Shown in pieces: positions 30,123-43,066 of a DNA stretch of 64,000 bases. The stretch comes from Treponemataceae bacterium (GTDB taxonomy: Bacteria > Spirochaetota > Spirochaetia > Treponematales > Rectinemataceae): contig CAXXHO010000003.1 in NCBI GenBank assembly GCA_963667725.2, forward strand, positions 800,001 to 864,000. Reading direction: 5' to 3'. The translations under genes and the position numbers were made by a program. The notes under the pieces were generated by a model. The model did no database searches, had not been told where the DNA came from, and worked only from the letters and a program-made list of their open reading frames with translations. Every line of letters starts with the position of its first letter. The first letter of the stretch is position 1.

Positions 30123-31757
30123 CTATAAAACCTTCTTCGCATTCGCCTTATCCAGATAGAGCTTGTTCTTCCTCAGAATGCCGGTGCCCGATTTCAAGAT
30201 GCCCATGCTCATAGTCTCCCTGATAAGGGCCAAGGCTTCACGTTCCTGCCATCCCGAAAGAGCACCCGCTTCGGCGCAGGTGGGTGGGTGGGCGAGAAAT
30301 GAGCGCATCGCCCGTTCGCCGGTGTCGCGTTCTCTGCGGCCATCAGGCTGGAATTGGAAATCCGGGCTTGCGCGGCCGAGGCTGGCGATCATGGGCTGAC
30401 AGAGAAGCTTCACGCTCTGTCTGAGCGTGAAGCGCCCACGATTGCGTCCGAAAAAATCCAGGATTTCGCCGAGACCTTCCGGCAGGGCCTCCGCCGATCC
30501 GTCGCAGATATCGCACCCTGAACAGGGCGAGGAGAGTTCGGAACCCATGAGCCTGTGCAGAAAAGCCCGTCGGCAGCTCAGCGCCGAGGCATACTCAAGA
30601 AAAGCGTTCTGGCGAATCGCCCTCAGCCTGTTCCTCTCCTCTCCCTCGGCGTCCTGGGCTCCGTTTTTTGACTCCCTGGCCTTTGCCCTCCCGCCGGAGT
30701 TCGCGGAATGAATCAGGATGGCCTCGGCCGTCTGGCCGTCGCGCCCGCCTCTTCCCGCTTCCTGTATGTAAGCTTCCACCGATGGGGGTTCCGAGTAATG
30801 AATGACCGTCCTAATGTTTCGCTTATCCACCCCCATGCCGTAGGCGCATGTGGCGGCCAGTACTCCATCGGCGCTCTCCATGAACCAGGTTTCCGTCGCG
30901 TTTTTTTCCTCCCTCGTCAGGCCAGCGTGATAGAACCTTGCATCGATAGTGGTGTTGTCCCTGATGATTTCGCAGATTCTTCTCACTCCATTGCGGGATT
31001 GGTCAAAGACGATGAGCGGTTTCGGTTTGGCACGAACGAGCCTGAGAAGGGTGTGAACGGGAGCGAGGGTAGCCTCTACCGAATAACGTATGTTGGGCTT
31101 ATCGATATCGGCGGTTACGAGCGAAAAGACTTCAGTGCCGAAGATATAGCGCGCGATGGCTTCGGCGACGGTGGGGCTGGCCGTGGCGGTGAAGGCGCTC
31201 ACGACCCTGGGCTTGATCGCCTCGATGCATCTGCCCAATTCCAGATAGGATGGTCTGAAGGTTTCGCCCCATTCGCTGACACAGTGCGCCTCATCGATCG
31301 CGAGGTGGAAGATTTTCGCCTCGGAGAGGAAATCCATCAGCCGCGGTGTCGCCAGGCATTCGGGATTGGTGATGACAATTCTGGCTTCGCCGCTGCGCAC
31401 GGCTTCCTGCCGCTGTCGTCTCTCTTCATCCTCCATCCCTCCCCGAAAGACGGCGCAGGAGATGCCGCGCCTTTTCAGGCTTCGCTCCTGATCATTCATC
31501 AGAGCGAGGAGGGGATAGACGACGACGCTGGGGCCGGGAGCGAGGAGGGCGGGGAGCTGGAAGCAGAGGCTTTTGCCGAATCCCGTCGGGAAAAGAACGA
31601 GCTGGCGCATCTTCTCTCCCGTCTCCATGGCGTCCAGGATGTTGGCGATAGCCATCCGCTGGAGGGGGAAGAGGTAGTCGATGCCGAATTTCACGCTCGC
31701 CAAGGCAGCGACGGGGTCTTCTTGTGACGATGCAAGCTGATCTGATGGTATTTCCAT
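30123..31757 (-). CDS. recQ: RecQ-family DNA helicase (no obvious HRDC domain)
   Basis: PTGFGKSLCFQ, IDEAHCVSEWG, TATA, QEAGRGGRDG, Zn motif CRR..CSGCDIC; start uncertain (31757-31784). Confidence 0.88.
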   Translation of the reverse strand: MEIPSDQLASSQEDPVAALASVKFGIDYLFPLQRMAIANILDAMETGEKMRQLVLFPTGFGKSLCFQLPALLAPGPSVVVYPLLALMNDQERSLKRRGISCAVFRGGMEDEERRQRQEAVRSGEARIVITNPECLATPRLMDFLSEAKIFHLAIDEAHCVSEWGETFRPSYLELGRCIEAIKPRVVSAFTATASPTVAEAIARYIFGTEVFSLVTADIDKPNIRYSVEATLAPVHTLLRLVRAKPKPLIVFDQSRNGVRRICEIIRDNTTIDARFYHAGLTREEKNATETWFMESADGVLAATCAYGMGVDKRNIRTVIHYSEPPSVEAYIQEAGRGGRDGQTAEAILIHSANSGGRAKARESKNGAQDAEGEERNRLRAIRQNAFLEYASALSCRRAFLHRLMGSELSSPCSGCDICDGSAEALPEGLGEILDFFGRNRGRFTLRQSVKLLCQPMIASLGRASPDFQFQPDGRRERDTGERAMRSFLAHPPTCAEAGALSGWQEREALALIRETMSMGILKSGTGILRKNKLYLDKANAKKVL

Positions 31758-31928
31758 ACCCTTTGAACATACCGAGGCAACCATGATGCTTCAGTATATG
31801 CTTGAACTCTTAAAATGATTTTAGTCATATGTCTGTTGATAATGTATACTATGCGCACTTATTTCTGGGACCGAATATTCAAGACACTTTCCAGTTCCCT
31901 GGCTGCCGGAAATACGGGACTAATGTCT

Positions 31929-33485
31929 CTAGTAAGCCGTTCCCTTGCCTTCAACCATCATGTCGTAGGCTTGTTTGACGCGTTCGTAGTTCTGGTCCCT
32001 GTCGAGCGCGAAGCCACGTCCTATTCCGTCTACGATAGAGCCTGTCCCGATGTCCTGAAGCTTGTCTTCAAGATCCATCAACAGCTGTGGCGCGCTGCCG
32101 GGTTCGGTCGATCTGCCGTCGAAGATGATGTGAAGATAGACGTTCCGCAGCTCTTGGGCTTTTGCCATTCTGGCCACGGCTACGGCGTAATCCATGCTTC
32201 CGTGGGAGGACTTGTAGGTCAGGTAGGTTATCAAATGCAGGGCCGCGCCTTTTTCTCGAGCCTTCCCGATGGAATGGAGAATGACGGGGTTTTTCTCGAA
32301 CGAGCCGTCTTCGATTGCCTTGTCGATGCGTATGTCGTCCTGAATGACGCGGCGTCCCGCGCCGAGGTTCATATGACCGGCTTCGGAATTTCCCGCTTTA
32401 CCAGACGCCAGTCCCACGTGCGCGCCTGAGGCGTTCAGGCGGCACCAGGAGGAACGGCTGATAAGGCTATCCCAGTATGGGGTCGATGCGAGGAACATCG
32501 CGTCATTATCGTCGCCAGAGCCAAGTCCCCAGCCGTCCAGAATCACTAAAAGTACCTTGCGGTTTGTCCCCCAGTCCTTGTTGCCTGTCAGCTTGTTTCC
32601 TGTCATCTGCGCGGGCTTTTCAATGCCCATGATATCAAGGACTGTCGGAGCGACGTCATAAAGGGAGCCGTCTCTCAGCGGCATCGTTTCGTCGGGATTT
32701 TTTGGGTCCAGAATTATGAAAGGGACAAGGTTTGTGGTGTGGGCGACATCAGGCGTTCCGTTTTTCGTGTAGAGCTTTTCAATATTGCCGTGGTCCGCGG
32801 TGACAATCACGACATAGTCGCGCTTCAGCGCCTTGATGGCAACATTCTCAAGATTGCCGCTTACCGCTTTGCAGGCCTCGAGTTTAGCCTCAGTGCTCGA
32901 CGTATGGCCAATTACATCGCCGTTCGCGAAGTTGACGACGATAAAATCATATCCGCCCAGCGCTTCTTCAACCGTCTTTGCGACTTCGGGCAGTGAAAGC
33001 TGTGGAACCGTATCAAAGGAAAGGCCCTTGGGGGAAGGAACGCAGCGGTTCGTCTCTCCGGCAAGACTGTCATCGTTCCCGCCGTTGAAGAAGTACGTCA
33101 CGTGCGCGAACTTCTCGGACTCGGCGCAGTGGAACTGGGTTTTTCCGGCCTTCGACAGCACCTGAGCCAAAGGAAGGTCGACTTTATAGGGCGCGAACGC
33201 GATCGGGAGATGTCGGAATTTTTCGTGGTACTGCGTAAGCAATACGAAGTCCAGGTCATGAAGGTACTTTCTGGGGACGGCAGAGAAGGCGGAGTCGGTG
33301 AACATTTCGGTCAGTTCGATTTCGCGCTCGCCTCTTCTGCAGCAGAAGACGACGCTGTCGCCATCCTGTATCCTTCTGTGCGAGCGGCTCACCAAGGCGG
33401 CCATGTGGTAGTCGTCCATGCCATCGGCATACGCTTTTCTTAGGGCTTCAGCCAGAGCGCGCCCACCATGCTCGGTTTGCTGCAT
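31929..33485 (-). CDS. Circularly permuted 2,3-BPG-independent phosphoglycerate mutase homologue (alkaline phosphatase superfamily)
   Basis: Canonical C-half motifs (AESEKFAHVTYFFNGG, NFANGDVIGH, TADHGN, AHT, DVAPT, MTG) precede canonical N-half motifs (LVILDGWG, GNSEAGH, DGR, DRD); start 33485 has a GGAG upstream, ORF extends to 33536. Confidence 0.88.
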   Translation of the reverse strand: MQQTEHGGRALAEALRKAYADGMDDYHMAALVSRSHRRIQDGDSVVFCCRRGEREIELTEMFTDSAFSAVPRKYLHDLDFVLLTQYHEKFRHLPIAFAPYKVDLPLAQVLSKAGKTQFHCAESEKFAHVTYFFNGGNDDSLAGETNRCVPSPKGLSFDTVPQLSLPEVAKTVEEALGGYDFIVVNFANGDVIGHTSSTEAKLEACKAVSGNLENVAIKALKRDYVVIVTADHGNIEKLYTKNGTPDVAHTTNLVPFIILDPKNPDETMPLRDGSLYDVAPTVLDIMGIEKPAQMTGNKLTGNKDWGTNRKVLLVILDGWGLGSGDDNDAMFLASTPYWDSLISRSSWCRLNASGAHVGLASGKAGNSEAGHMNLGAGRRVIQDDIRIDKAIEDGSFEKNPVILHSIGKAREKGAALHLITYLTYKSSHGSMDYAVAVARMAKAQELRNVYLHIIFDGRSTEPGSAPQLLMDLEDKLQDIGTGSIVDGIGRGFALDRDQNYERVKQAYDMMVEGKGTAY

Positions 33486-33498
33486 TCCGTTCTCCGTA

Positions 33499-34602
33499 CT
33501 AGATAGTATTTCGTCTGTTGCGTTCTTCCTCGACATCTTTGCTCTCAGGCTTGTACCATGCGGGATCCTTTATCTTGATAAAGCAGGGTTCGCCTGCCCT
33601 GAAAAAGTTCCTGTGCGGAGTCTGGACCATGAAAGTGCCTTTGCCTACGGATACCAGATATTCCATGAATTCCGTTTTTGAGGTTCTCTTGAGGATTGTC
33701 GACTTGTAGCCTTCCTCTCTGTTGAGGTCGATCGCGTTTGGTCTTGTGGCCATCACATAATCGCCTTTCAGATCTAATGGAGTCCCGGTGAACAGTAAAC
33801 TGGACTCGTCATCTTTTAAAAAAGCTCTTCCGTCCCTGATAGCGACATCGGTGAAATTGGACTGGCCGAGGAAGTTGTAGACAAAGCGATTGACCGGCTT
33901 GTGATACAATTCCTGCGGAGTTCCGATCTGCTGGATATTTCCCATGTCCATGACCAGCATGCGGTCGGAAAGCGCCATGGCCTCCGCTTGATCGTGGGTG
34001 ACAAAGATGATGGTAAATCCGAATTCTTTCTGCAGCCTTTTGATTTCAAAGCGCATCGATTCTCGCAGATGAGGGTCGAGATTCGAAAGCGGCTCATCGA
34101 GGAGCATGACATCGGGATTGACGACGATCGCTCTAGCCAAGGCGATTCTTTGCTGCTGACCGCCGGAGAGGTCTGAAGGATAGACTTTTTCAAGTCCGTC
34201 GAGGTTGCTGTGGTGAAGGGTGAGCGCTACGCGCTTTTGTATCTCTGAGCTTGGGCACTTTTTCACCTTAAGAGGGAAGGCCACGTTGTCATAGACATTC
34301 AGATGAGGCCAAACGGCGAAGGCTTGGAAGACCATCCCCAAATTACGCTTTTCCGGTGGAAGATAGATGTTCTTCTTCTTGTCCGAAACAAGCCTGCCGC
34401 CGAGGTAGATCGAACCTTCGGAGAGGTCTTCAAAACCCGCGATCATACGCAACGTGGTAGTCTTTCCGCAGCCCGAGGGACCGAGGAAGGAGAAACACTC
34501 GCCTTTTTTCACGGAGAGGTTGAAATCCTTGACCGCCACAACCGTTCCCAACGACTTTGTGGTAAACGACTTTGTCACATGCTCAAGCACTATTTGGTCC
34601 AT
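33499..34602 (-). CDS. ABC transporter ATPase (FbpC/PotA class), copy 2
   Basis: [39 protein letters not shown]-like tail. Confidence 0.93.
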   Translation of the reverse strand: MDQIVLEHVTKSFTTKSLGTVVAVKDFNLSVKKGECFSFLGPSGCGKTTTLRMIAGFEDLSEGSIYLGGRLVSDKKKNIYLPPEKRNLGMVFQAFAVWPHLNVYDNVAFPLKVKKCPSSEIQKRVALTLHHSNLDGLEKVYPSDLSGGQQQRIALARAIVVNPDVMLLDEPLSNLDPHLRESMRFEIKRLQKEFGFTIIFVTHDQAEAMALSDRMLVMDMGNIQQIGTPQELYHKPVNRFVYNFLGQSNFTDVAIRDGRAFLKDDESSLLFTGTPLDLKGDYVMATRPNAIDLNREEGYKSTILKRTSKTEFMEYLVSVGKGTFMVQTPHRNFFRAGEPCFIKIKDPAWYKPESKDVEEERNRRNTI

Positions 34603-34603
34603 G

Positions 34604-36331
34604 TCATACTCTCTTTTTGTCTTTGACGAGTGCCTTGACAATGTTGTTGCAGAGAATGATCAGCGTGATCGTGACCACCGAAAGGGCTGCCGCCGGAGCT
34701 ATCTGGCCGTTGATTCTCAACTGGTAAATGGCGACCCCAAGCGTCCTGCTTTTGGGTCCGTACAGAAGAATGGATGTTGTCAGTTCCCTCATGCAAGGAA
34801 GGAATACCAGGAAGAACCCCGATATCATGGCGGGCTTGATCAAAGGCAGGGTAATATCCTTGAGAGTCTGCATGTGGGATGCCCCGCAGGACCTCGCGGC
34901 CTCCTCAAGCGAGGCGTGGACCTGATGCAACGCGGCGGAACTCGATTTAAGCGCGTACGACAAGTACCTCGCGATGTAGGCGACAAGGATTATCCAAATG
35001 GTGTTGTACAACGTGATTCCGAAAAACGCTCCCGACCAGGCGAGGATACAGCCGATGGCCATGACGGTTCCGGGCAACGAATAGGGAAGAACCGCCATCA
35101 TTTCAAGGGCGATGCCTCCTTTCGGTTTTACCTTGTAGATGACATAGGCAAGCATCGTTCCCAGAAGCAGGCAGAAGGAAGCCGCCGAGAATGCCAGAAA
35201 CAGCGAGTTTTTCACCGAATCGCGGACCATGATGTTGCCGACGAAGATTCTGCGGAAATTGGCTAGGGTAAGGTTCTGGGCAAGGAACGGCAGGCCGTAC
35301 GCTTTCACGAAGCTGACCAGGATGATCATGACGATCGGCGCGACGACGATAAGGCTCAGGAACAGCAGCGAGAAGGCGAGAAGAGGATACTTGGCTCCCC
35401 TGAGCTTGATGAGCATGGGACGCATGGACTTTCCTTTGATGATGTCGTATCGCCCGTGCGTCATAAGGCGTCTCTGTACCAGAAGCGCAATGGAGACGAT
35501 GAACACCAGAACGATGGAGAGGGCGGCCGACTGCCTGATACCCTCGAAACTTCCGCCGGCGCGGTCCATTAGTTTGGTTATCATCGTGGGCAAGGTGAAG
35601 ATGTTCTGCGAATAACCCAACATCGCCGGTATCCCGTAGTTCGACAGAGAAGTGATGAGTACCAGAAGCATTCCGGACGAAATGGCGGGAATCGTGAGGG
35701 GAAGGGTGATCTTCCTGATCACGTACGGCTGGCTGGCTCCCGCTATCCTCGCGCTTTCCTCAAGGGTCGGGTCCATGCGCTCGAGCGCGCTGACGACCTG
35801 CATGTAGACAAAGGGGAAATAGTAGACGACTTCGATGACGATGATGCCGGCTACGCTGTTGATATTAAACGGAGCCTTCGCGAGGTTGAAAAGGGACATG
35901 AGGGCCTTGTTCACATATCCTCCACGGCCCGAGAACATCATATCCCATGACATCGCGGCGAGAAACGGCGGAATCATGAACGGAATGGAGAAGAGGAACT
36001 TCATCACCCCCGTCATGGGAATGTCGCTCCGTCCCAAAAGCCAGGCGAAGAAAACCCCCACGACGGTAGCGAGGGCGGTTGAGCAAACTCCTATCACCAT
36101 AGTGTTCCACATGGCGCCGATGTTGCTTTTCTGGAATATGACCTGCTTGAACATAGCGATGTCGATCTTTGTCCCGTCCCAGAAAGCGTAATAGAGAATC
36201 ATGAGCACGGGAAGGATGGCCACGGTTATCAGGGCTACGTAACAGAGAATGATCATCAACCGGTCCAGGGGGAAGCCCCTTTTGCCCTCAAGACGTGCCA
36301 GATCAGGGTTTATGACTCTGGAAAAGATCAT
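34604..36331 (-). CDS. ABC transporter fused double permease (FbpB/AfuB/ThiP class)
   Basis: Two EAA loops (LEESARIAGAS, LEEAARSCGAS); about 12 TM segments. Confidence 0.92.
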   Translation of the reverse strand: MIFSRVINPDLARLEGKRGFPLDRLMIILCYVALITVAILPVLMILYYAFWDGTKIDIAMFKQVIFQKSNIGAMWNTMVIGVCSTALATVVGVFFAWLLGRSDIPMTGVMKFLFSIPFMIPPFLAAMSWDMMFSGRGGYVNKALMSLFNLAKAPFNINSVAGIIVIEVVYYFPFVYMQVVSALERMDPTLEESARIAGASQPYVIRKITLPLTIPAISSGMLLVLITSLSNYGIPAMLGYSQNIFTLPTMITKLMDRAGGSFEGIRQSAALSIVLVFIVSIALLVQRRLMTHGRYDIIKGKSMRPMLIKLRGAKYPLLAFSLLFLSLIVVAPIVMIILVSFVKAYGLPFLAQNLTLANFRRIFVGNIMVRDSVKNSLFLAFSAASFCLLLGTMLAYVIYKVKPKGGIALEMMAVLPYSLPGTVMAIGCILAWSGAFFGITLYNTIWIILVAYIARYLSYALKSSSAALHQVHASLEEAARSCGASHMQTLKDITLPLIKPAMISGFFLVFLPCMRELTTSILLYGPKSRTLGVAIYQLRINGQIAPAAALSVVTITLIILCNNIVKALVKDKKRV

Positions 36332-37398
36332 GCATCCTCCCTCGCAAAATACCTTTCCTCGAGAAAAGCGAGCCCGACTTCCTCTCCCTCCGAATAGGAT
36401 TTCGCGTTTTCGGAAATGGCGAGCTGCTGGACCCGAATTTCCATTCCCGGAAGCCTAACGAAATAATTGTACATATTGCCGAGGAAAATCGATTGCGCGA
36501 CGGTCGCGCGAACGGGACTGTTGTCATCAAACACGATGTCCATCGGCCTTATGCCGAGCATCGCCTTTGTGCCCGTCATTTTCTCGCGAATCTGGGATTT
36601 GAAGAGGATCTTCTTTTCGAGATCAAAGAAGGCTTTGCCGTCCTCGACCACCACGGGGATGAAGTTCGAAACCCCTATGAACTGAAAGACGAATCGGTTC
36701 GCGGGGTTCCTGATGATTTCCTCATCGGATCCGATCTGGGCGATCGACCCATCGGGTTCAAGGATCACTATCTTGTCGCACAGTTGCATCGCGGCTTCCT
36801 GGTCATGCGTGATGTAGATTATCGTGGTGCCCAGCCTTTGCTGCAGAAGGCGAATTTCGACAAGCATCTGCTCGCGGAGCTTGGCGTCAAGGTTGGTGAT
36901 CGGTTCATCCATGATGAGAAAATCGCTGGATGATGTCAGAGCCCGCGCTATCGCGACTCTCTGCTGCTGCCCGCCTGAAAGTTGGGAAGGCATGTACTTC
37001 TCGTAGCCCACCATATTGACTTGTCCTAGCGCGTTGTGCACCTGAGGACCTGTCTCTTCCTTCGACAGCCCGCGCTTTTTCAGCGGATAGGCGATGTTGT
37101 CGTAGACGCTGAGATGCGGCCAGACGGCATAATCCTGAAATACCACGCCGATATGTCTTTGTTCGGGGGGAATGTCGACTCTATCCTTGTGACTGAACAT
37201 GGTCTTTTCGTCAATTTTCACCGTTCCCTGTTGCGGCTTGAGGAAACCGCAGATCGCCCTGACAATGGTGGACTTGCCGCAACCCGAGGGACCAACGATG
37301 CCCATAATCTGGCCCGGTTCGATCTTCAGTGAGAAATCCTTGAGGACCACATGCTCGCCATAGCTTACGCAGATATTTTCAAGTTCGACCTTTTCCAC
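36328..37398 (-). CDS. ABC transporter ATPase (FbpC/PotA class), copy 1
   Basis: [34 protein letters not shown]. Confidence 0.93.
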
Positions 37399-37448
37399 GC
37401 GTCACCCCCCGAAAACGACGCGTGCCGGATGCAGGGCATCCAGCACGC
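37396..37448 (-). promoter_or_regulatory. Intercistronic stem-loops between binding-protein and ATPase genes
   Basis: gcgtgccggatgc/gcatccagcacgc (37420-37448) and cacgcgtc/gacgcgtg (37396-37424). Confidence 0.6.
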
Positions 37449-37466
37449 TGACTAAAACGATTCTGA

Positions 37467-38471
37467 TTACTTTTTTGTCTTGAAATATGAATCGAACTGG
37501 TCAAGCAGCTTGTTGCTCACTTTGGCGAGGTCGACCCAATCGATAGGAAGCGCCTTTGAGGCTATTTCGGTGGCAGTCAGCATGCCGGCGGGAAGTTTGA
37601 CGCCGTCGACGACTGGCGTGATATTGTACTGAGTAAGCAGCTTCTGGCCGCCGTTCGGATCCAGGATGAAATCATAAAGAAGCTTTGCGAGCTTTTCGTG
37701 CGGAGCGCCGGCTGGAATCGCGATCGGACAGGGCACGGCGACGATATCCTTGGTATCATGCCAGCCAATCGGGGAACCTTCAGCCATAAGGTTTTTAGTG
37801 TTGTAATCAACGCCGAAGGCGACCTTGTATGAACCGGCCGCGACTGCATTGTTTGTCGCGCCCGAACTCGATTGAAGCTCCATGCCCATCTCGCTGAGCT
37901 TTTTAAAGTAATCCCAGCCGTATTTGGGGTTGTGAGTCATCGCATAGATTAGCGCCTTCGTCGAACCTGAACCGGTCGGGTCCGTCATGATCAGCTGTTT
38001 ATTGAAATTCGGGGCGAGAAGGCCGTCCCAGTTGTACGGGGCTTCCTTATCCGAACACGAGGTCGTGCTGAAGGTAATGCCCATGATCAGCAGACGGGCT
38101 CCGGTAAAATAGCCCGCGGCATCCTTGAACTTGGAGTCCACACCCGTCACGAAGGGGGACATATACTGGAGAAGGTGATTATCGGCCTTGAGAGTGATCA
38201 TCGCCGAGGGATCCGCAAGCCATGCAAGATCACAGGTTACGGACTTGGACTGGAATTCCATCAGGAGTTTGGTGACGCATTTGCCTGATGTGGCGGAATA
38301 GTAATCCAGCTTGACATTCGGATACTTGGCTTCAAAAGCGTTTTTGAGAGCGATCACGACATCCTCGCCGGTAGACGAATACAACATAACCTTTCCGCTG
38401 TATGAGGCGTCGGCGGCGATGGCTGGCAACAAAGCCGAGACGAGCAACCAAATAAAAATCAGCTTTTTCAT
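37467..38471 (-). CDS. ABC substrate-binding protein (AfuA/FbpA/PgtC-like class)
   Basis: Signal peptide, LYSS, FEAKYPNVK, DPTGSGS, AKLLYDFIL; first gene of the ABC operon. Confidence 0.88.
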   Translation of the reverse strand: MKKLIFIWLLVSALLPAIAADASYSGKVMLYSSTGEDVVIALKNAFEAKYPNVKLDYYSATSGKCVTKLLMEFQSKSVTCDLAWLADPSAMITLKADNHLLQYMSPFVTGVDSKFKDAAGYFTGARLLIMGITFSTTSCSDKEAPYNWDGLLAPNFNKQLIMTDPTGSGSTKALIYAMTHNPKYGWDYFKKLSEMGMELQSSSGATNNAVAAGSYKVAFGVDYNTKNLMAEGSPIGWHDTKDIVAVPCPIAIPAGAPHEKLAKLLYDFILDPNGGQKLLTQYNITPVVDGVKLPAGMLTATEIASKALPIDWVDLAKVSNKLLDQFDSYFKTKK

Positions 38472-38658
38472 ACTACCTTTCCTCCTTGATAACGGGCTTG
38501 AACCCGAAAGGTAATTTTATTATGAGTTATGGAATTTTTAATGGGTAGTACAAAATCATGACTTTTTTATCGGTTGTTCGAAATTTGAATTATTCCTTCT
38601 TTTTCTTTTATCTTGTCAAGAATTACCTTTGTCATGCATAATAGCTTCGGAGAACTCC

Positions 38659-40893
38659 ATGCCCCAGGGGAAAAGCAGGACAAGATTATCCATGTCGATG
38701 ATCTTCACCGGATCGTTGGTAGGAATGTTTTTAATTTTTCTGATTCTCATGGCTATTGTCTACAGCCAGTTTCAGAAATCGCTGCTCTTGTCTCTTGCCA
38801 AACAGAACGAGGAATTCGCCTCCCAGGTCAGTTCAACCACAAAATTCGCCGATGAGATTCTTATCAGTGTCACAAACCAGCTCTTCTACGATCCGGCCGT
38901 AACGTTGCTAAGGAAAAGCGATAAGATTTCCAACTTTGAATTCATCGAGGGAATAAGACAGATAAACGATATCGCCGCCTCGGCTATCCTGATTGACTCG
39001 ATCTACATCTATAACGGCAAGAAGGATTATATTTACAGTACCGCGCAGTATGGGCCGGTCAACGATAATGCCGAGCGTTTCAGGGACAAGGACGCGGTAC
39101 GAATGCTCCGTGAGCGTAGGAGCGAGCAACGGCTGGTAATTATTCCCCGGGAAACATCCATGTTCAGCGGTTCGGGTAATTCGGCCATCTATTCGTTTAT
39201 GTTCTTTGAGACGATTTCGGACGGGACTCCGGATACCAACGCTATCCTTCTCAACCTGAAGGCATCGGCCTTCACCAAGTTGTATTTCGGCAGCGACTTT
39301 CAGAATCAGGCGTTCATCATAAACGGCAAAGGGACCTTGATCGCTTCCAAGGACTCTTTAGAAGAAAGTGCCAGGCATGGGCTAATCGCCAGGATCCTCG
39401 CGGAAAACGCGAACGACAAGGCTAGCGGCTATTTCACCTTCCCCAATGCTGGCGTAGGGAAAATGCTCTGTTTCTATTCATCTTTGGGTGAGCACAACTG
39501 GATCTATGTAAAGACTCTTGCCTACGAAGAAGCCTTTCCCGCATTGCTGCGTTCACGCAACCGCACCCTTGTCGCCATTTCCGTCATAATCCTTGTTCTC
39601 GTGGCGGTATCCGCGCTCATAGCGAATCGCGTCTATGTCCCCTACAGAAAGATTTCGCAAAAGATTTCCAAAGCAATCAGCGGCAACGGAAATGAGAATC
39701 CCGACCAAATAATCAGGAACCTTGACCAGCTTATCGTTGAACATGACAGCCGGGAATTCCTTGGGCCCATGATAAAAAGCGAGATCCTCAAGGATTTGCT
39801 TCTGGGAAAGAAGTCTATCGATATGCCCGACTTCAACCTTGAAACCCACCACCTTCAGATAGCCATAAACTTTCCAGTCACGCTATATCTATTAAGCAAC
39901 AAGGACATAGTACTTAATACCGAGGATATCCAGGAGAGGATCCCATATTGCGAAACGGTGGCGATAAATTCCTACCTTATCCTTTTCCTCCAGCCTATGA
40001 GTCAGGATCAGGAAATACATGTACGGAACGAACTCGTCAGAAAAAATCCTGACATGCTTCTCATTTACTCCGAAGAAATCAGGGACTGGTCTTTGATCCC
40101 TGACACTTTCCAGAAACTCGGGGAGACTTGGCAGCTCAGATTTCTGCATCCTGAGACAAAGCTGATTAGCTTGAAAGACCAGCCGCTGAGAAGGCATGTA
40201 ATGGCCCCGCTTTCTGAAAAATCGGCCGCGGTAGTAGGATTTCTGAAGAAGGGATTCTATTCAAAAGCGGCGGAAACCTGGAATCTGTTTGTTCGTGAAC
40301 TGGAGGACAAGCAGTACTCGACGGTCAACGTTGCGCTCATAAACATCGCGAATGCCATACTCAAGCTTGCCTTGGATTACAAAGTGCTTGATTCGACATA
40401 CGAGGAATCTTGCGTGGCTTACCAGATGACGATCGACAGTCTGGATGATATGAACGAACTGAATAAACTGTTGGACGATCTTTTTCGCAAAATCACCGAC
40501 AATGTCCAGCAGATGCAGCAGACCAGCAAGAAAGATACAATCCATGAGATTTTCGAATACCTCGCCCAAAACTACACCGACATGCAGATTTCCACTAAGT
40601 CGGTTGCCGATGTCTTCAAGATGTCGCCCGCGTACCTGTCGCGAATTTACAGACAGGGGCTGGGCCATTCTCTGATGGATGAAATTAATGCGCTAAGGAT
40701 TCAAAAGGCTAAAGAGTGTCTTGCCGATCCCAACGGCCTGATAAAGAACATTCCGCAGAAGATTGGTCTTGAGAATTCACAGTACTTTTTCCTGCTGTTC
40801 AAGAAAATGACAGGCAAGACGCCCAAAGCATATCAGAATGACTTGATAATGCTCAGAAAGAGAGAGGCCGCGAAACAGAGCAGACGAGTCTGA
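38659..40893 (+). CDS. Membrane-anchored AraC-family regulator with extracytoplasmic sensor domain (YesS-like)
   Basis: Two TM helices flanking a domain of about 270 aa; C-terminal AraC HTH (MSPAYLSRIYRQ...YFFLLFKKMTGKTPKAY); divergent from the ABC operon. Confidence 0.88.
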   Translation: MPQGKSRTRLSMSMIFTGSLVGMFLIFLILMAIVYSQFQKSLLLSLAKQNEEFASQVSSTTKFADEILISVTNQLFYDPAVTLLRKSDKISNFEFIEGIRQINDIAASAILIDSIYIYNGKKDYIYSTAQYGPVNDNAERFRDKDAVRMLRERRSEQRLVIIPRETSMFSGSGNSAIYSFMFFETISDGTPDTNAILLNLKASAFTKLYFGSDFQNQAFIINGKGTLIASKDSLEESARHGLIARILAENANDKASGYFTFPNAGVGKMLCFYSSLGEHNWIYVKTLAYEEAFPALLRSRNRTLVAISVIILVLVAVSALIANRVYVPYRKISQKISKAISGNGNENPDQIIRNLDQLIVEHDSREFLGPMIKSEILKDLLLGKKSIDMPDFNLETHHLQIAINFPVTLYLLSNKDIVLNTEDIQERIPYCETVAINSYLILFLQPMSQDQEIHVRNELVRKNPDMLLIYSEEIRDWSLIPDTFQKLGETWQLRFLHPETKLISLKDQPLRRHVMAPLSEKSAAVVGFLKKGFYSKAAETWNLFVRELEDKQYSTVNVALINIANAILKLALDYKVLDSTYEESCVAYQMTIDSLDDMNELNKLLDDLFRKITDNVQQMQQTSKKDTIHEIFEYLAQNYTDMQISTKSVADVFKMSPAYLSRIYRQGLGHSLMDEINALRIQKAKECLADPNGLIKNIPQKIGLENSQYFFLLFKKMTGKTPKAYQNDLIMLRKREAAKQSRRV

Positions 40894-42079
40894 TGTTCCG
40901 GTTCTCAATCCAAGCCGATAGGGATTTGCAATCTTCGGTCTTGGCATGGAACAGCATAACCGCCGAGGGTTTTGCTTTCTGTATCAGGCTCTTGATATCT
41001 TCTTGATCCGGATGCACCTTGATGACGGTCGATTCAACAACCAGCTTTATTGATTCCTTTCGGCGGTATTCCGGGTCCGATATCATTTTCCCCAAAGAAC
41101 CTGTGGCGACATGTCCGCTTATGATTATTTTGTTTCTGCCGTCATTTTTGATTTTTTCAAAGTATTGGACAGAAACGGGGCTTGTCATCATGCCGTCTGG
41201 ACATAAAACCGCATATCCTCCTAAATCATCACTGGTTCCGTCTTGAGCTTCTATAAAGCTTCCCTTCGCGTCCCATAACGATGATTCAGAAATCCACCCG
41301 ACTTTGTCTTTAAGCGTATACAAGCTCTTTAGGATGCTTTTATCTACAATTAATGACACTTTCTGTTCCAAGAGATACAAAAAGAGGTCGATTCCCCGTC
41401 CGTTTGAAGGTACCGGGAGCAACACGGTTCCGTTTTCGCGAATCGTCTTATTAACAGATGCGAGGATGTTCTCATACTGTTGTTTTTGGTCGATTGTCCT
41501 TGCGGCATATGCTGCATCGGTGATAAGAATGTCGCAGGCCGGCATTTCATCGGCCTTCAGCAACAGCGAGTCGAAGCAGGTATCGCCGGTATAGAGAAGA
41601 GTAGTGCTGTTAAAGTTAAAATGGTACCACAGACTCCCCAGCATGTGGGCGCTTCGCCCGGCGAGTACCTTGATGCCAGAGATCTCATTGACCCCAAGTT
41701 CCAGTGGGTGAAAATCCAGAAGTTCGATGTTGTTCTCGTCAAACGGAAGAGTTCCGCCTTTCTCTTTCACGTAAGAAACCCATTTTCTCATGAAGCCTTT
41801 CGCTAATCTCATGGTTTCCGAGTGGCAGAATACCGGTCCACGGTATCCGAGCTCGTATAGGTAAGGCAAGGCGGCGCTATGGTCTTCATGTGCGTGGGAA
41901 AGGAATACGGCATCGATCGATAATGCTATCTCTTTGGTTATATGGGGGTAGACTCGTTCGACCGTGGAAATTTCCCTCAGCACGCCGCAATCGAGGAGAA
42001 AACGTTTCCCCCCAGCGGAAACATGAAAGCAATTGCGCGCGTCTTCGCCGCTGCCGCCTAACGACTCGACTGTAACCAT
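40853..42079 (-). CDS. Metallo-beta-lactamase fold hydrolase with beta-CASP domain
   Basis: LLDCG, SHAHEDH, AHMLGS, YTGD, VLLPVPSNGRG, ISGH, KVHPD. Confidence 0.87.
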   Translation of the reverse strand: MVTVESLGGSGEDARNCFHVSAGGKRFLLDCGVLREISTVERVYPHITKEIALSIDAVFLSHAHEDHSAALPYLYELGYRGPVFCHSETMRLAKGFMRKWVSYVKEKGGTLPFDENNIELLDFHPLELGVNEISGIKVLAGRSAHMLGSLWYHFNFNSTTLLYTGDTCFDSLLLKADEMPACDILITDAAYAARTIDQKQQYENILASVNKTIRENGTVLLPVPSNGRGIDLFLYLLEQKVSLIVDKSILKSLYTLKDKVGWISESSLWDAKGSFIEAQDGTSDDLGGYAVLCPDGMMTSPVSVQYFEKIKNDGRNKIIISGHVATGSLGKMISDPEYRRKESIKLVVESTVIKVHPDQEDIKSLIQKAKPSAVMLFHAKTEDCKSLSAWIENRNIRLVCSVSRPLSF

Positions 42080-42355
42080 ATAACCCTCAATTGAAGAAAA
42101 ATTCTAAATCAGTTTCTTCCGGCAGACAAGGACTGTCATTCATATCTATATATCCGATACGCGACTTGGGACGATGTATCTGCTGGTCCCGAAACCGCGG
42201 CGAGGAGGCCATATCTCCTTTTCGCGAACGGGCGGAAGCGAAGCGAGCATACATTGATCGAGATGGTACTCGAGGCATACACATGGGTTTGTTCCCATAC
42301 CTCTCATGATCGGCAGCGGCCGATGGCCGCAAATCTTTCTGAACAGGAGTCTTCT

Positions 42356-43066
42356 ATGCAGAAGCGAATCGGGATTGTACTCGCGATCGCCCTGTTGGCG
42401 CTCACCGCGGTGGGGGCACAGGGCATGTATCTCGGACTTGGGCACGCGTCCAATTTCCGCCTCGGACCGGGCAAAGACAGCACGGGAACGCAGGTATACA
42501 GTTTCAATTTCGTATTTTCCTCCGTCATCTTCGACGCGGCGGGGAAAGTCCTGGATTGCGAATTCGACGCCCTCGAAGTCAGCACGCCTAACTACGACGG
42601 CGCTTCCATGCCCCATTTCGCTGGCTGGCCCGGGAGTCCCGAACCCAACTTCACCGACCACAAGACGGAAAAAGTGGCGGGAAAAGCCCCCACGACCGTC
42701 GAGGCGGTGGCGGCTGACATAAAAGGCTGGAAGACCAAGCGCGATCGCGGCGATGACTACGGGATGAATCCGAGAAACGACTGGTATCATCAGATGGATA
42801 TATACGAGAAACTCTTCGTCGGTAAAACGATGGACGAGATAAATGCCTGGTTTGCCAGGTATTTCAGCGACGTGAACGGCCGCCCTCTCAATCTCGAGAC
42901 GAAGGTTGAGAAAGATATGGCCAAGGTCGCCCTCCTCAATGAGACGGAGAAGGCCATGCTCGTCGACGTGCGAACCGGCGCCACGATGAGCCTGAACGAC
43001 GCCCATGGTCCCTATCTCGCCGCCCTGAAGAGCGCCTGGGAAAACAGGAAACCTTTGGCGAAGTAA
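42356..43066 (+). CDS. Secreted protein with a putative FMN-binding/flavinylation motif
   Basis: Signal peptide (MQKRIGIVLAIALLALTAVGAQG); C-terminal DVRTGATMS matches [S/T]GA[S/T]; AGGAG before the ATG. Confidence 0.65.
   Translation: MQKRIGIVLAIALLALTAVGAQGMYLGLGHASNFRLGPGKDSTGTQVYSFNFVFSSVIFDAAGKVLDCEFDALEVSTPNYDGASMPHFAGWPGSPEPNFTDHKTEKVAGKAPTTVEAVAADIKGWKTKRDRGDDYGMNPRNDWYHQMDIYEKLFVGKTMDEINAWFARYFSDVNGRPLNLETKVEKDMAKVALLNETEKAMLVDVRTGATMSLNDAHGPYLAALKSAWENRKPLAK

Follow-up and report, generated by a model that had tools for sequence, protein, structure and literature searches.

A circularly permuted relative of phosphoglycerate mutase with a remodelled substrate pocket, encoded in an ABC importer operon

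Chain order and integrity of the permuted gene

The window analysed here, i.e. the whole stretch of 64,000 nucleotides between positions 800,001 and 864,000 of contig CAXXHO010000003.1 (Treponemataceae bacterium, assembly GCA_963667725.2), carries on its minus strand a gene related to cofactor-independent phosphoglycerate mutase (iPGM, GpmI type) in which the two parts of the chain are inverted. This permutant is the last gene of a single-strand operon with the order binding protein, ATPase, permease, ATPase, permutant (Table 1). The open reading frame (ORF) ends at 31929, and its longest reading, from 33536, gives a protein of 535 amino acids (aa; P0001). The start at 33485 (Met18, 518 aa), already chosen in a first-pass annotation of this DNA, is most likely the true one, because a GGAG lies 7 nt upstream of it, the closest homologues are 518 aa long and the ESM Atlas record begins at residue 18. 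Residues are numbered here from the codon at 33536; subtracting 17 gives the numbering of the 518-aa protein. A scan for promoters and terminators at the 3' end of the gene gave nothing above chance level.

In the alignment to the Bacillus stearothermophilus iPGM (PDB 1EJJ), residues 30-316 correspond to positions 218-508, and the alignment of residues 326-535 to positions 4-213 is free of gaps. In other words, the aligned sequences place the opening of the chain between canonical residues 213 and 218, within the transferase domain; a stretch of nine residues connects the former termini. Two Pfam matches in inverted order had been anticipated and were found: positions 64-252 of the Metalloenzyme model lie at residues 115-307 and positions 1-130 of iPGM_N at residues 404-533, each model matching in two stretches. 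The collinear order of GpmI (phosphatase N-part, transferase insert, phosphatase C-part) is absent, the halves being inverted relative to the 11 listed solved iPGM sequences; the identity to solved GpmI/iPGM proteins (PDB 1EJJ, 1O98, 5VPU, 4MY4) is about 36-40%. The motifs quoted in the first-pass annotation are all present in the protein in the order given there, and its proposal of a natural circular permutant of a GpmI-type iPGM is fully supported by the 1EJJ alignment, by junction-spanning homologues and by an independent contig.

This contig (contig 23 of run X5, from a study other than that of the best holders X1-X4) spans 31573-42500 and differs there by 100 substitutions but no gap, which refutes a misassembly at 32560-32610. 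With a junction-spanning query the junction was matched in 80 of 80 kept genome loci; these are the best 80 of at least 572 relatives, mostly Oscillospiraceae and not independent, and the locus counts over 80 given below are to be read accordingly. The underlying records are labelled Spirochaetota, Oscillospiraceae and other Clostridia, and Anaerolineae. Among the best 120 protein matches, 116 are 511-536 aa long, with 95-97% query coverage and 59-93% identity, and a 50%-representative search gave further single-stretch matches with identities down to 38%. Samples of 400 genomes yielded 12 more divergent permutants in the Bacillota (the phylum of G047) and one in the phylum of the host. A metagenome scan with one short pattern gave 4 permuted loci among the 80 matches listed, and a plasmid search returned 46 records, all below 60% identity, of which the 15 matches listed were two-piece canonical ones.

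An assembly chimera or a decaying gene is practically out of the question: chimeric-looking records of 720 aa do occur in the protein collection, so that artefacts exist in this family, but the independent contig spans the junction, homologues of matching length cover nearly the whole query, divergent single-stretch representatives exist, the catalytic columns are invariant and the structure is predicted with high confidence (see below). The chimeric-looking records, i.e. proteins of 719-727 aa with the arrangement N-C-N (P0013, P0020, P0028, P0110), were considered as duplication intermediates and rejected as most likely assembly chimeras. All four occur once only, on short contigs. Their N-parts are unlike one another, with switches at common motifs, but their last 280 residues are mutually identical at 279-280 of 280 positions and agree at 276-277 of 280 with one abundant permutant. 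At L067:7391-8936 the permutant is broken into two ORFs (210 + 279 aa) and many neighbours are broken as well, probably by sequencing errors. Two loci titled Bacteroidaceae and Segatella copri (L002, L003) have a cassette like those of Sphaerochaeta; since these labels may be binning errors, we make no claim that the family occurs in Bacteroidota.

The GpmI equivalog model TIGR01307 is matched in two stretches with 474.4 bits (cut-off 330.65). A second GpmI equivalog, NF003897, gives 373.8 bits against a cut-off of 862 and is non-discriminating here, because the canonical iPGM of the host fails the same cut-off (335.8). The Metalloenzyme model of the alkaline phosphatase superfamily (PF01676) scores 190.8 bits against a gathering score of 24.3, with the metal-binding motifs present, while the models for the ApgM-type iPGM (TIGR00306, 36.9 vs 320) and phosphopentomutase (TIGR01696, 22.1 vs 341.2) remain below their cut-offs. 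The protein is annotated as a phosphoglycerate mutase because it passes TIGR01307, despite departing from GpmI in chain order and at Asp154. An AlphaFold model built on an 87-sequence alignment has a pLDDT of 95.3 and a pTM of 0.88. Against 1O98, Foldseek gives a TM score of 0.46 (rmsd 2.7, 268 columns) and VIA-align, against residues 212-510, a Z of 22.9 (rmsd 4.6, 289 residues aligned). Both cover one half only, as is expected of sequential aligners because the chain is permuted. The two-domain iPGM fold is thus predicted for the permutant, its second half being matched by sequence and not by structure.

Table 1. Position of the permuted gene, its parts and its neighbours in the window
Feature	Positions	Strand	Evidence or remark
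Circularly permuted iPGM-family gene	31929..33485	-	518 aa from Met18 of P0001
Chain part 1, residues 30-316 = canonical iPGM 218-508; R68, R71, K142 and metal ligands D207, H211, D248, H249, H266	32589..33449	-	1EJJ alignment, column counts, VIA-align
Nine-residue linker, residues 317-325, old C-terminus to old N-terminus	32562..32588	-	Gap between aligned stretches; independent contig spans
Chain part 2, residues 326-535 = canonical iPGM 4-213; D334, nucleophile S384, H445, R475, R507, R513	31932..32561	-	Ungapped 1EJJ alignment
Codon of nucleophilic Ser384 (= Ser62)	32385..32387	-	Ser in 132/132 permutants
Codon of Ser476, replaces Asp154	32109..32111	-	Permutants Ser 125, Asp 4, Gly 3 of 132; canonical Asp 98/100
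Codon of Arg67, replaces Phe260; new basic residue beside Arg261	33336..33338	-	Arg 125/132 permutants; Phe/Tyr 96/100 canonical
Codon of Lys442, replaces Gly120; new basic residue before His123	32211..32213	-	Lys 114, Arg 3 of 132 permutants; Gly 83/100 canonical
ABC ATPase directly upstream of permutant (ORF as listed)	33499..34641	-	63-83% identity to counterpart in related cassettes
ABC permease, two BPD_transp_1 units	34604..36331	-	Best model PhnU2, under cut-off
Second ABC ATPase	36328..37398	-	Profile matches
Solute-binding protein, Fe3+/2-AEP/AfuA-like class	37467..38471	-	Profile matches
AraC-family regulator, 754 aa, divergent from operon	38629..40893	+	
Metallo-beta-lactamase / beta-CASP-type hydrolase	40853..42079	-	Travels with cassette

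Active site and history of the permutation

Column counts were taken over 132 aligned permutants together with 100 canonical iPGMs. All 132 permutants share, without exception, the metal ligands (D334, D207, H211, D248, H249, H266) and the nucleophile S384, which had been reported as kept; the two-metal ligand set is that of iPGM as given in the accessible text of PMC5382265. Nine substrate contacts of iPGM (S62, H123, R153, D154, R185, R191, R261, R264 and K336) are named in the accessible text of PMC3886921, and eight of these are retained, as S384, H445, R475, R507, R513, R68, R71 and K142, the ninth, D154, being a serine. The motif changes noted in the first-pass annotation (DGRD to DGRS, NFRxDR to CRRGER, GGVHS to KSSHG) are borne out, but the emphasis had to be corrected: NFRxDR keeps its arginines and GGVHS its histidine, and only Asp154 is altered among the nine contacts taken from that text.

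The changes in the pocket are concerted across the clade. Besides the replacements at Asp154, Phe260 and Gly120 (Table 1), Glu72 stands for Ala265 in 128 of 132 permutants and Tyr43 for Glu231 in 124 of 132, and the pair Ser-Ser ahead of the pocket histidine is new in the permutants (V122S). The Asp of DGRD is presumably the base for the return transfer of phosphate in iPGM. The lost acid, together with cations and hydroxyls gained by the free-hydroxyl site, may suit a substrate with a second, adjacent phosphate and would lean towards hydrolysis. The new conserved Glu72 could, however, substitute for the lost acid, in which case mutase activity would be retained.

The remodelled permutants form one well-supported group (support 99-100). 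P0127, P0144 and the P0135 group have the same permutation site but retain DGRD, NFRxDR and a VHS motif; relatives of P0135 are 83-85% identical and are found on contigs of up to 512 kb. We note P0127, P0144, P0135, P0272 and P0274 as candidates for permuted yet ordinary mutases. In a FastTree phylogeny the permutants with a canonical pocket are scattered among canonical enzymes, which suggested several independent permutations. This was not established, as, in a quick search on 35 rows, the approximately unbiased (AU) test does not reject a single permutant clade (p 0.728) and the constrained tree is better by 23 log-likelihood units. Because the canonical pocket persists in a few permutants and the test leaves room for a single origin, the permutation may predate the remodelling; this order of events is allowed by the data rather than shown.

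Five metagenome matches of 2.2 kb, first taken for fusions, proved to be tandem pairs of canonical-order gpmI genes that do not group with the permutants (L099:415-3579, L100:1825-4041, L115:7983-11107, L164:3282-6459, L166:7992-11122). In every pair the GGVHS motif of the leading gene is altered, and these leading genes make up a separate clade.

Gene neighbourhoods in the host and in related genomes

As the first-pass annotation had suggested checking, a canonical gpmI is present elsewhere in the host genome (G000, 97% complete), at C3:1288644-1290302 (TIGR01307, 397 bits); its product is 30-32% identical to the permutant, with the halves inverted. The permutant is thus an accessory paralogue beside a canonical iPGM. 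The same holds for 20 of 21 Spirochaetota/Bacillota-type permutant hosts, and a full canonical copy is found in 9 of 12 divergent Bacillota hosts. None of 10 Anaerolineae hosts has a canonical GpmI; here an ApgM-type mutase adjoins the permutant in 9 of 10 loci (ApgM is a neighbour in 11 of the 80 loci overall).

Within the operon, homologues suggest a start near 34602 for the ATPase directly upstream of the permutant. Of the 80 loci, 10 have the AraC gene next to the permutant, and HAD genes are absent from all 10. The beta-CASP hydrolase occupies the same position in L052, L056, L068, L181-L183 and L222, i.e. wherever the flank reaches, and at E<=1e-45 it was found in one of 399 scored genomes of one sampled class, namely the genome with the cassette. 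The GC content of the cassette is 0.509, against 0.594 and 0.557 in the flanks, and the permutant is absent from 40 of 40 relatives of the host genome; because the cassette is GC-poor and missing from these relatives, it was likely gained by transfer. Expression is unsupported in the two runs inspected: the depth over the permutant gene is 0-1.5 in the RNA run X19 (contigs), and the raw-read run X23 has no coverage of the gene. The binding protein of the window matches PDB entries only at E 1e-9 to 1e-5. Its similarity to other proteins is a weak guide to the ligand, the nearest paralogues having uninformative neighbours.

Several loci resemble parts of this cassette. The host has a paralogue of the four-gene transporter that is not accompanied by a mutase-like gene (L217:8532-13559, host C3) and an ABC importer akin to those of the inositol-type clusters described below (L174:7578-11613, host C5; binding protein 30% and permease 41% to L076) with no enzyme neighbours. 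Enterocloster asparagiformis DSM 15981 carries a window-type cassette (L052), and in Enterocloster asparagiformis (G047) a second permutant paralogue lies beside RpiR and TctC/TctA genes (L176:9189-14985). At L183:13622-18888 a DeoR gene and a glycerol-3-phosphate-oxidase-like gene precede the cassette hydrolase on the same strand. Just outside the cassette of the window, at 42254-43066 (+), a 270-aa protein with a signal-peptide-like start is encoded; it is absent from related loci and has no Pfam or NCBIfam match.

Most of the other loci are of a different type (HAD type), to which L014 of Dysosmobacter segnis BX15 belongs. One to five HAD phosphatases accompany the permutant in 68 of 80 loci, the permutant mostly lying directly downstream; a PHP protein is present in 40 of 80 and a ribokinase-family gene matching TM0415 (E 3e-37) in 39 of 80, as well as in 19 of 20 HAD-type genomes. 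All 39 full-length copies have TM0415 signature-like residues in a motif check. TM0415 is described, in the accessible text of PMC5931981, as a pyrophosphate-dependent myo-inositol kinase in an inositol cluster; its actual acceptor may, according to the same text, be a related compound. The gene iolG lies inside the 8-kb flank in 7 of 80 loci, directly downstream in 6 Oscillospiraceae loci, and within about 4-11 kb of the permutant in all 10 Anaerolineae genomes (one under cut-off), and L095 is flanked by iolB, iolD and iolG. The Anaerolineae cluster also includes a phosphate transporter and a PhoU-like gene; an H+-pyrophosphatase is present in 3 loci. The permutants of these inositol clusters are 53-65% identical to the window protein, carry the same motifs and intermingle with it within one sub-clade of the tree.

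Further features of these clusters were recorded. At L008:538-8972, as at 67 comparable loci, HAD phosphatases with as many as five paralogues occur with LacI, the PHP protein and the TM0415-type kinase, followed in 29 HAD-type loci by a split transketolase and in 24 by an iron alcohol dehydrogenase. The Anaerolineae locus L219:690-16585 encodes two uridine-kinase/PRK-like proteins whose N-terminal part is unknown, ApgM, RpiR and an ABC importer, and in addition HAD fusions with a TIM-barrel domain, a PhoU-like gene, a phosphate transporter, a TM0415-type kinase and a metallo-beta-lactamase protein; on its other side lie uxaE, a mannonate oxidoreductase and a nickel hexonate-epimerase-like gene.

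A third arrangement is seen in 6 of the 12 divergent Bacillota loci (L201-L204, L207, L208), with the order GntR, a protein of 443-459 aa, binding protein, permease, ATPase and permutant. The 443-459 aa protein is a homologue of the synthetase of cyclic 2,3-diphosphoglycerate (cDPGS; PDB 9SXB/8ORK, E 1e-127), and the permutants of these operons carry DGRS, (R/K)SSHG and CRRG(D/E)R. Of the other divergent loci, four lie between rapZ and phosphoglucomutase, with no transporter, and one lies among housekeeping genes.

Possible substrates and comparison with known systems

The first-pass annotation proposed a phosphatase, or a mutase acting on a different organophosphate. This stands in part: the family-wide loss of Asp154, the canonical iPGM in the genome and the neighbourhoods speak for it indirectly, and the eight intact contacts and a Glu72 that may replace the acid, as read from the sequences, speak against it. 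We propose that the enzyme removes or shifts phosphate on an imported compound, and for the sub-clade of the window protein the likeliest substrate may be a lower inositol phosphate, a choice we make tentatively and because the nearest relatives point there. A phosphoserine would form at Ser384, as in iPGM. The altered pocket, with Ser in place of Asp154 and new Arg, Lys and Ser residues, would take a substrate phosphorylated where phosphoglycerate has a free hydroxyl; since a phosphate would sit at that position, one of two adjacent phosphates would be removed or shifted. Phosphate from an imported vicinal polyphosphate would thus pass onto Ser384 and then to water, or be moved to another position. 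A substrate of this kind would be available in the inositol-type as well as in the cDPGS-type neighbourhood. Together with its beta-CASP hydrolase, the cassette would mainly provide phosphate to this host, in which inositol catabolism is lacking.

A number of observations weigh against an inositol phosphate. The window-type cassette hosts have no iolG (0 of 11; G000, G041-G050) and no TM0415-type kinase (0 of 12), and iolD exceeds the cut-off in 0 of 10, or in one of 11 where G051 is counted. Several of these genomes are small drafts, while G047 is complete, and none of the three markers is found in the 97% complete G000. The accessible text of PMC3886921 describes the iPGM cavity as small, and all glycerate-binding arginines are retained in the permutant. 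The cDPGS-operon permutants form a sister clade that differs little in its motifs from the window protein, and the window binding protein is 30% identical (E 1e-43) to that of the cDPGS operons, against 22% or no match for the HAD-type binding proteins.

The last two points lead to another reading, in which the enzyme is a 2,3-bisphosphoglycerate (2,3-BPG) phosphatase in the salvage of cyclic 2,3-diphosphoglycerate (cDPG), a solute of methanogens. The ABC transporter would import cDPG or 2,3-BPG, the beta-CASP hydrolase would open the ring in place of a cDPGS-like enzyme, and the permutant would yield 3- or 2-phosphoglycerate (3-PG, 2-PG) for glycolysis. We regard this as possible, though unlikely, and consider it because it would explain both the pocket and the lack of iol genes in the host, none being required. 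D154S and the extra cations would suit glycerate bearing a further phosphate, the residues on the carboxylate side all being kept; permutants with the same motifs sit in the cDPGS-homologue operons; the window permease is 36-37% identical to the permeases of these operons and 27-29% to the HAD-type ones; and the second permutant of G047 lies beside carboxylate-transporter genes. A reversible cDPGS and the hydrolysis of cDPG to 3-PG are described in the accessible text of PMC1224877, where the hydrolase activity is named and no gene is given. However, the permutants of the cDPGS clade are only 39-42% identical to the window protein, against 53-65% for the inositol-cluster members. A cDPGS homologue was found neither in the host genome nor in 32 of 32 genomes of the window sub-clade, with a query that was positive in 6 of the 45 genomes searched. 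The argument from the transporter is weakened by closer relatives of the window binding protein, which occur in operons that lack any telling enzyme, and that the beta-CASP protein of the cassette would cleave cDPG is an assumption.

The protein could also be an ordinary 2-PG/3-PG mutase in which Glu72 (or Glu70) takes the role of Asp154, the operon supplying phosphoglycerate or a precursor. The TIGR01307 score, the eight retained contacts, the near-invariant Glu72 and the existence of permutants with a fully canonical pocket are consistent with this, as are the Anaerolineae hosts with no canonical GpmI and the four transporter-free loci between rapZ and phosphoglucomutase. We nevertheless hold it to be improbable, as a canonical iPGM is present in the host and in most related and divergent hosts, an ApgM-type mutase adjoins the permutant in nearly all Anaerolineae loci, iPGM paralogues are described as rare in the accessible text of PMC2964296, and the pocket changes are concerted across the clade. 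Improbable as well, finally, is another polyol phosphate, e.g. glycerol phosphate freed from a phosphodiester by the hydrolase, with a shift of glycerol-2-phosphate to glycerol-3-phosphate or hydrolysis. Beta-CASP proteins cleave phosphodiesters, and in L183 (and L182, with a frameshifted hydrolase) the hydrolase stands on one strand after DeoR, the glycerol-3-phosphate-oxidase-like gene (under cut-off), an FAD oxidoreductase and DUF1667. These are two closely related genomes only, the other cassettes have unrelated flanks, and the added basic residues would favour more, not fewer, negative charges.

A broader possibility, in our opinion a rather unlikely one, is that the permuted family as a whole comprises enzymes for vicinal polyphosphates. 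MINPP1 is an example of one enzyme that acts on both inositol phosphates and 2,3-BPG. In the inositol clusters the permutant would then be an inositol-phosphate mutase feeding a reversed TM0415-type kinase, the sister clade would use the same pocket for methanogen-derived 2,3-BPG, and the permutants with an intact pocket would be intermediates. The last phosphate would be moved, e.g. from inositol 2-phosphate, which is an intermediate of phytate breakdown according to the accessible text of PMC7618129, to a position usable by the kinase, and the kinase in reverse would save it as pyrophosphate for the neighbouring H+-pyrophosphatase. If true, anaerobes would have a phytate pathway that runs inside the cell and conserves energy.

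A literature search by title and beginning of abstract, mostly without subscription journals and without supplements, found no description of a permuted iPGM, and, with the same limit on journals, nothing on the permutant gene clusters; in the accessible texts 'permut' occurs 0 times in PMC2964296, and 'mutase' is absent from PMC13311982 and PMC12482443. iPGM is a textbook glycolytic enzyme and a drug target. A permuted family that spans several phyla and is annotated as plain phosphoglycerate mutase is therefore hidden in databases and can mislead metabolic models. The permutants are also a natural test of the role of Asp154 (mutase vs phosphatase) and of permutation before a change of function. 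Their neighbours point to two undescribed routes in anaerobes, i.e. one by which gut Oscillospiraceae and Anaerolineae would take up and degrade inositol phosphates, and one for the bacterial use of cDPG.

Among the known systems, the archaeal-type ApgM and the phosphopentomutase DeoB have a two-metal phosphatase core in common with the permutant (weak profile matches; Z ~11.7 to phosphopentomutase), but their cap domain is unlike that of the permutant, which scores far under their cut-offs. The inositol-type clusters resemble TM0411-TM0416 of Thermotoga maritima in the TM0415 homologue, iolG and UxaE-type genes; unlike them, the Thermotoga cluster has no mutase-like or HAD genes mentioned in the accessible text of PMC5931981, and the window cassette has none of these inositol-cluster genes. 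With the archaeal metabolism of cDPG (cDPG synthetase, PDB 8ORK/9SXB) the divergent clade has in common a cDPGS homologue, here in one operon with the permutant and an ABC importer; these operons, absent from the host genome, differ from the archaeal system in being bacterial and apparently uptake-oriented. The closest system is GpmI/iPGM itself. The permutant has both its domains, all metal ligands, the nucleophilic serine and the counterparts of H123, R153, R185, R191, R261, R264 and K336, and differs in D154S, F260R, G120K, V122S, E231Y and A265E, in the order of the chain and in being an accessory operon gene beside a canonical copy. Judged by its residues, it would work like an iPGM-type phosphoserine enzyme, but it departs from GpmI in two defining features, i.e. 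the chain order and Asp154.

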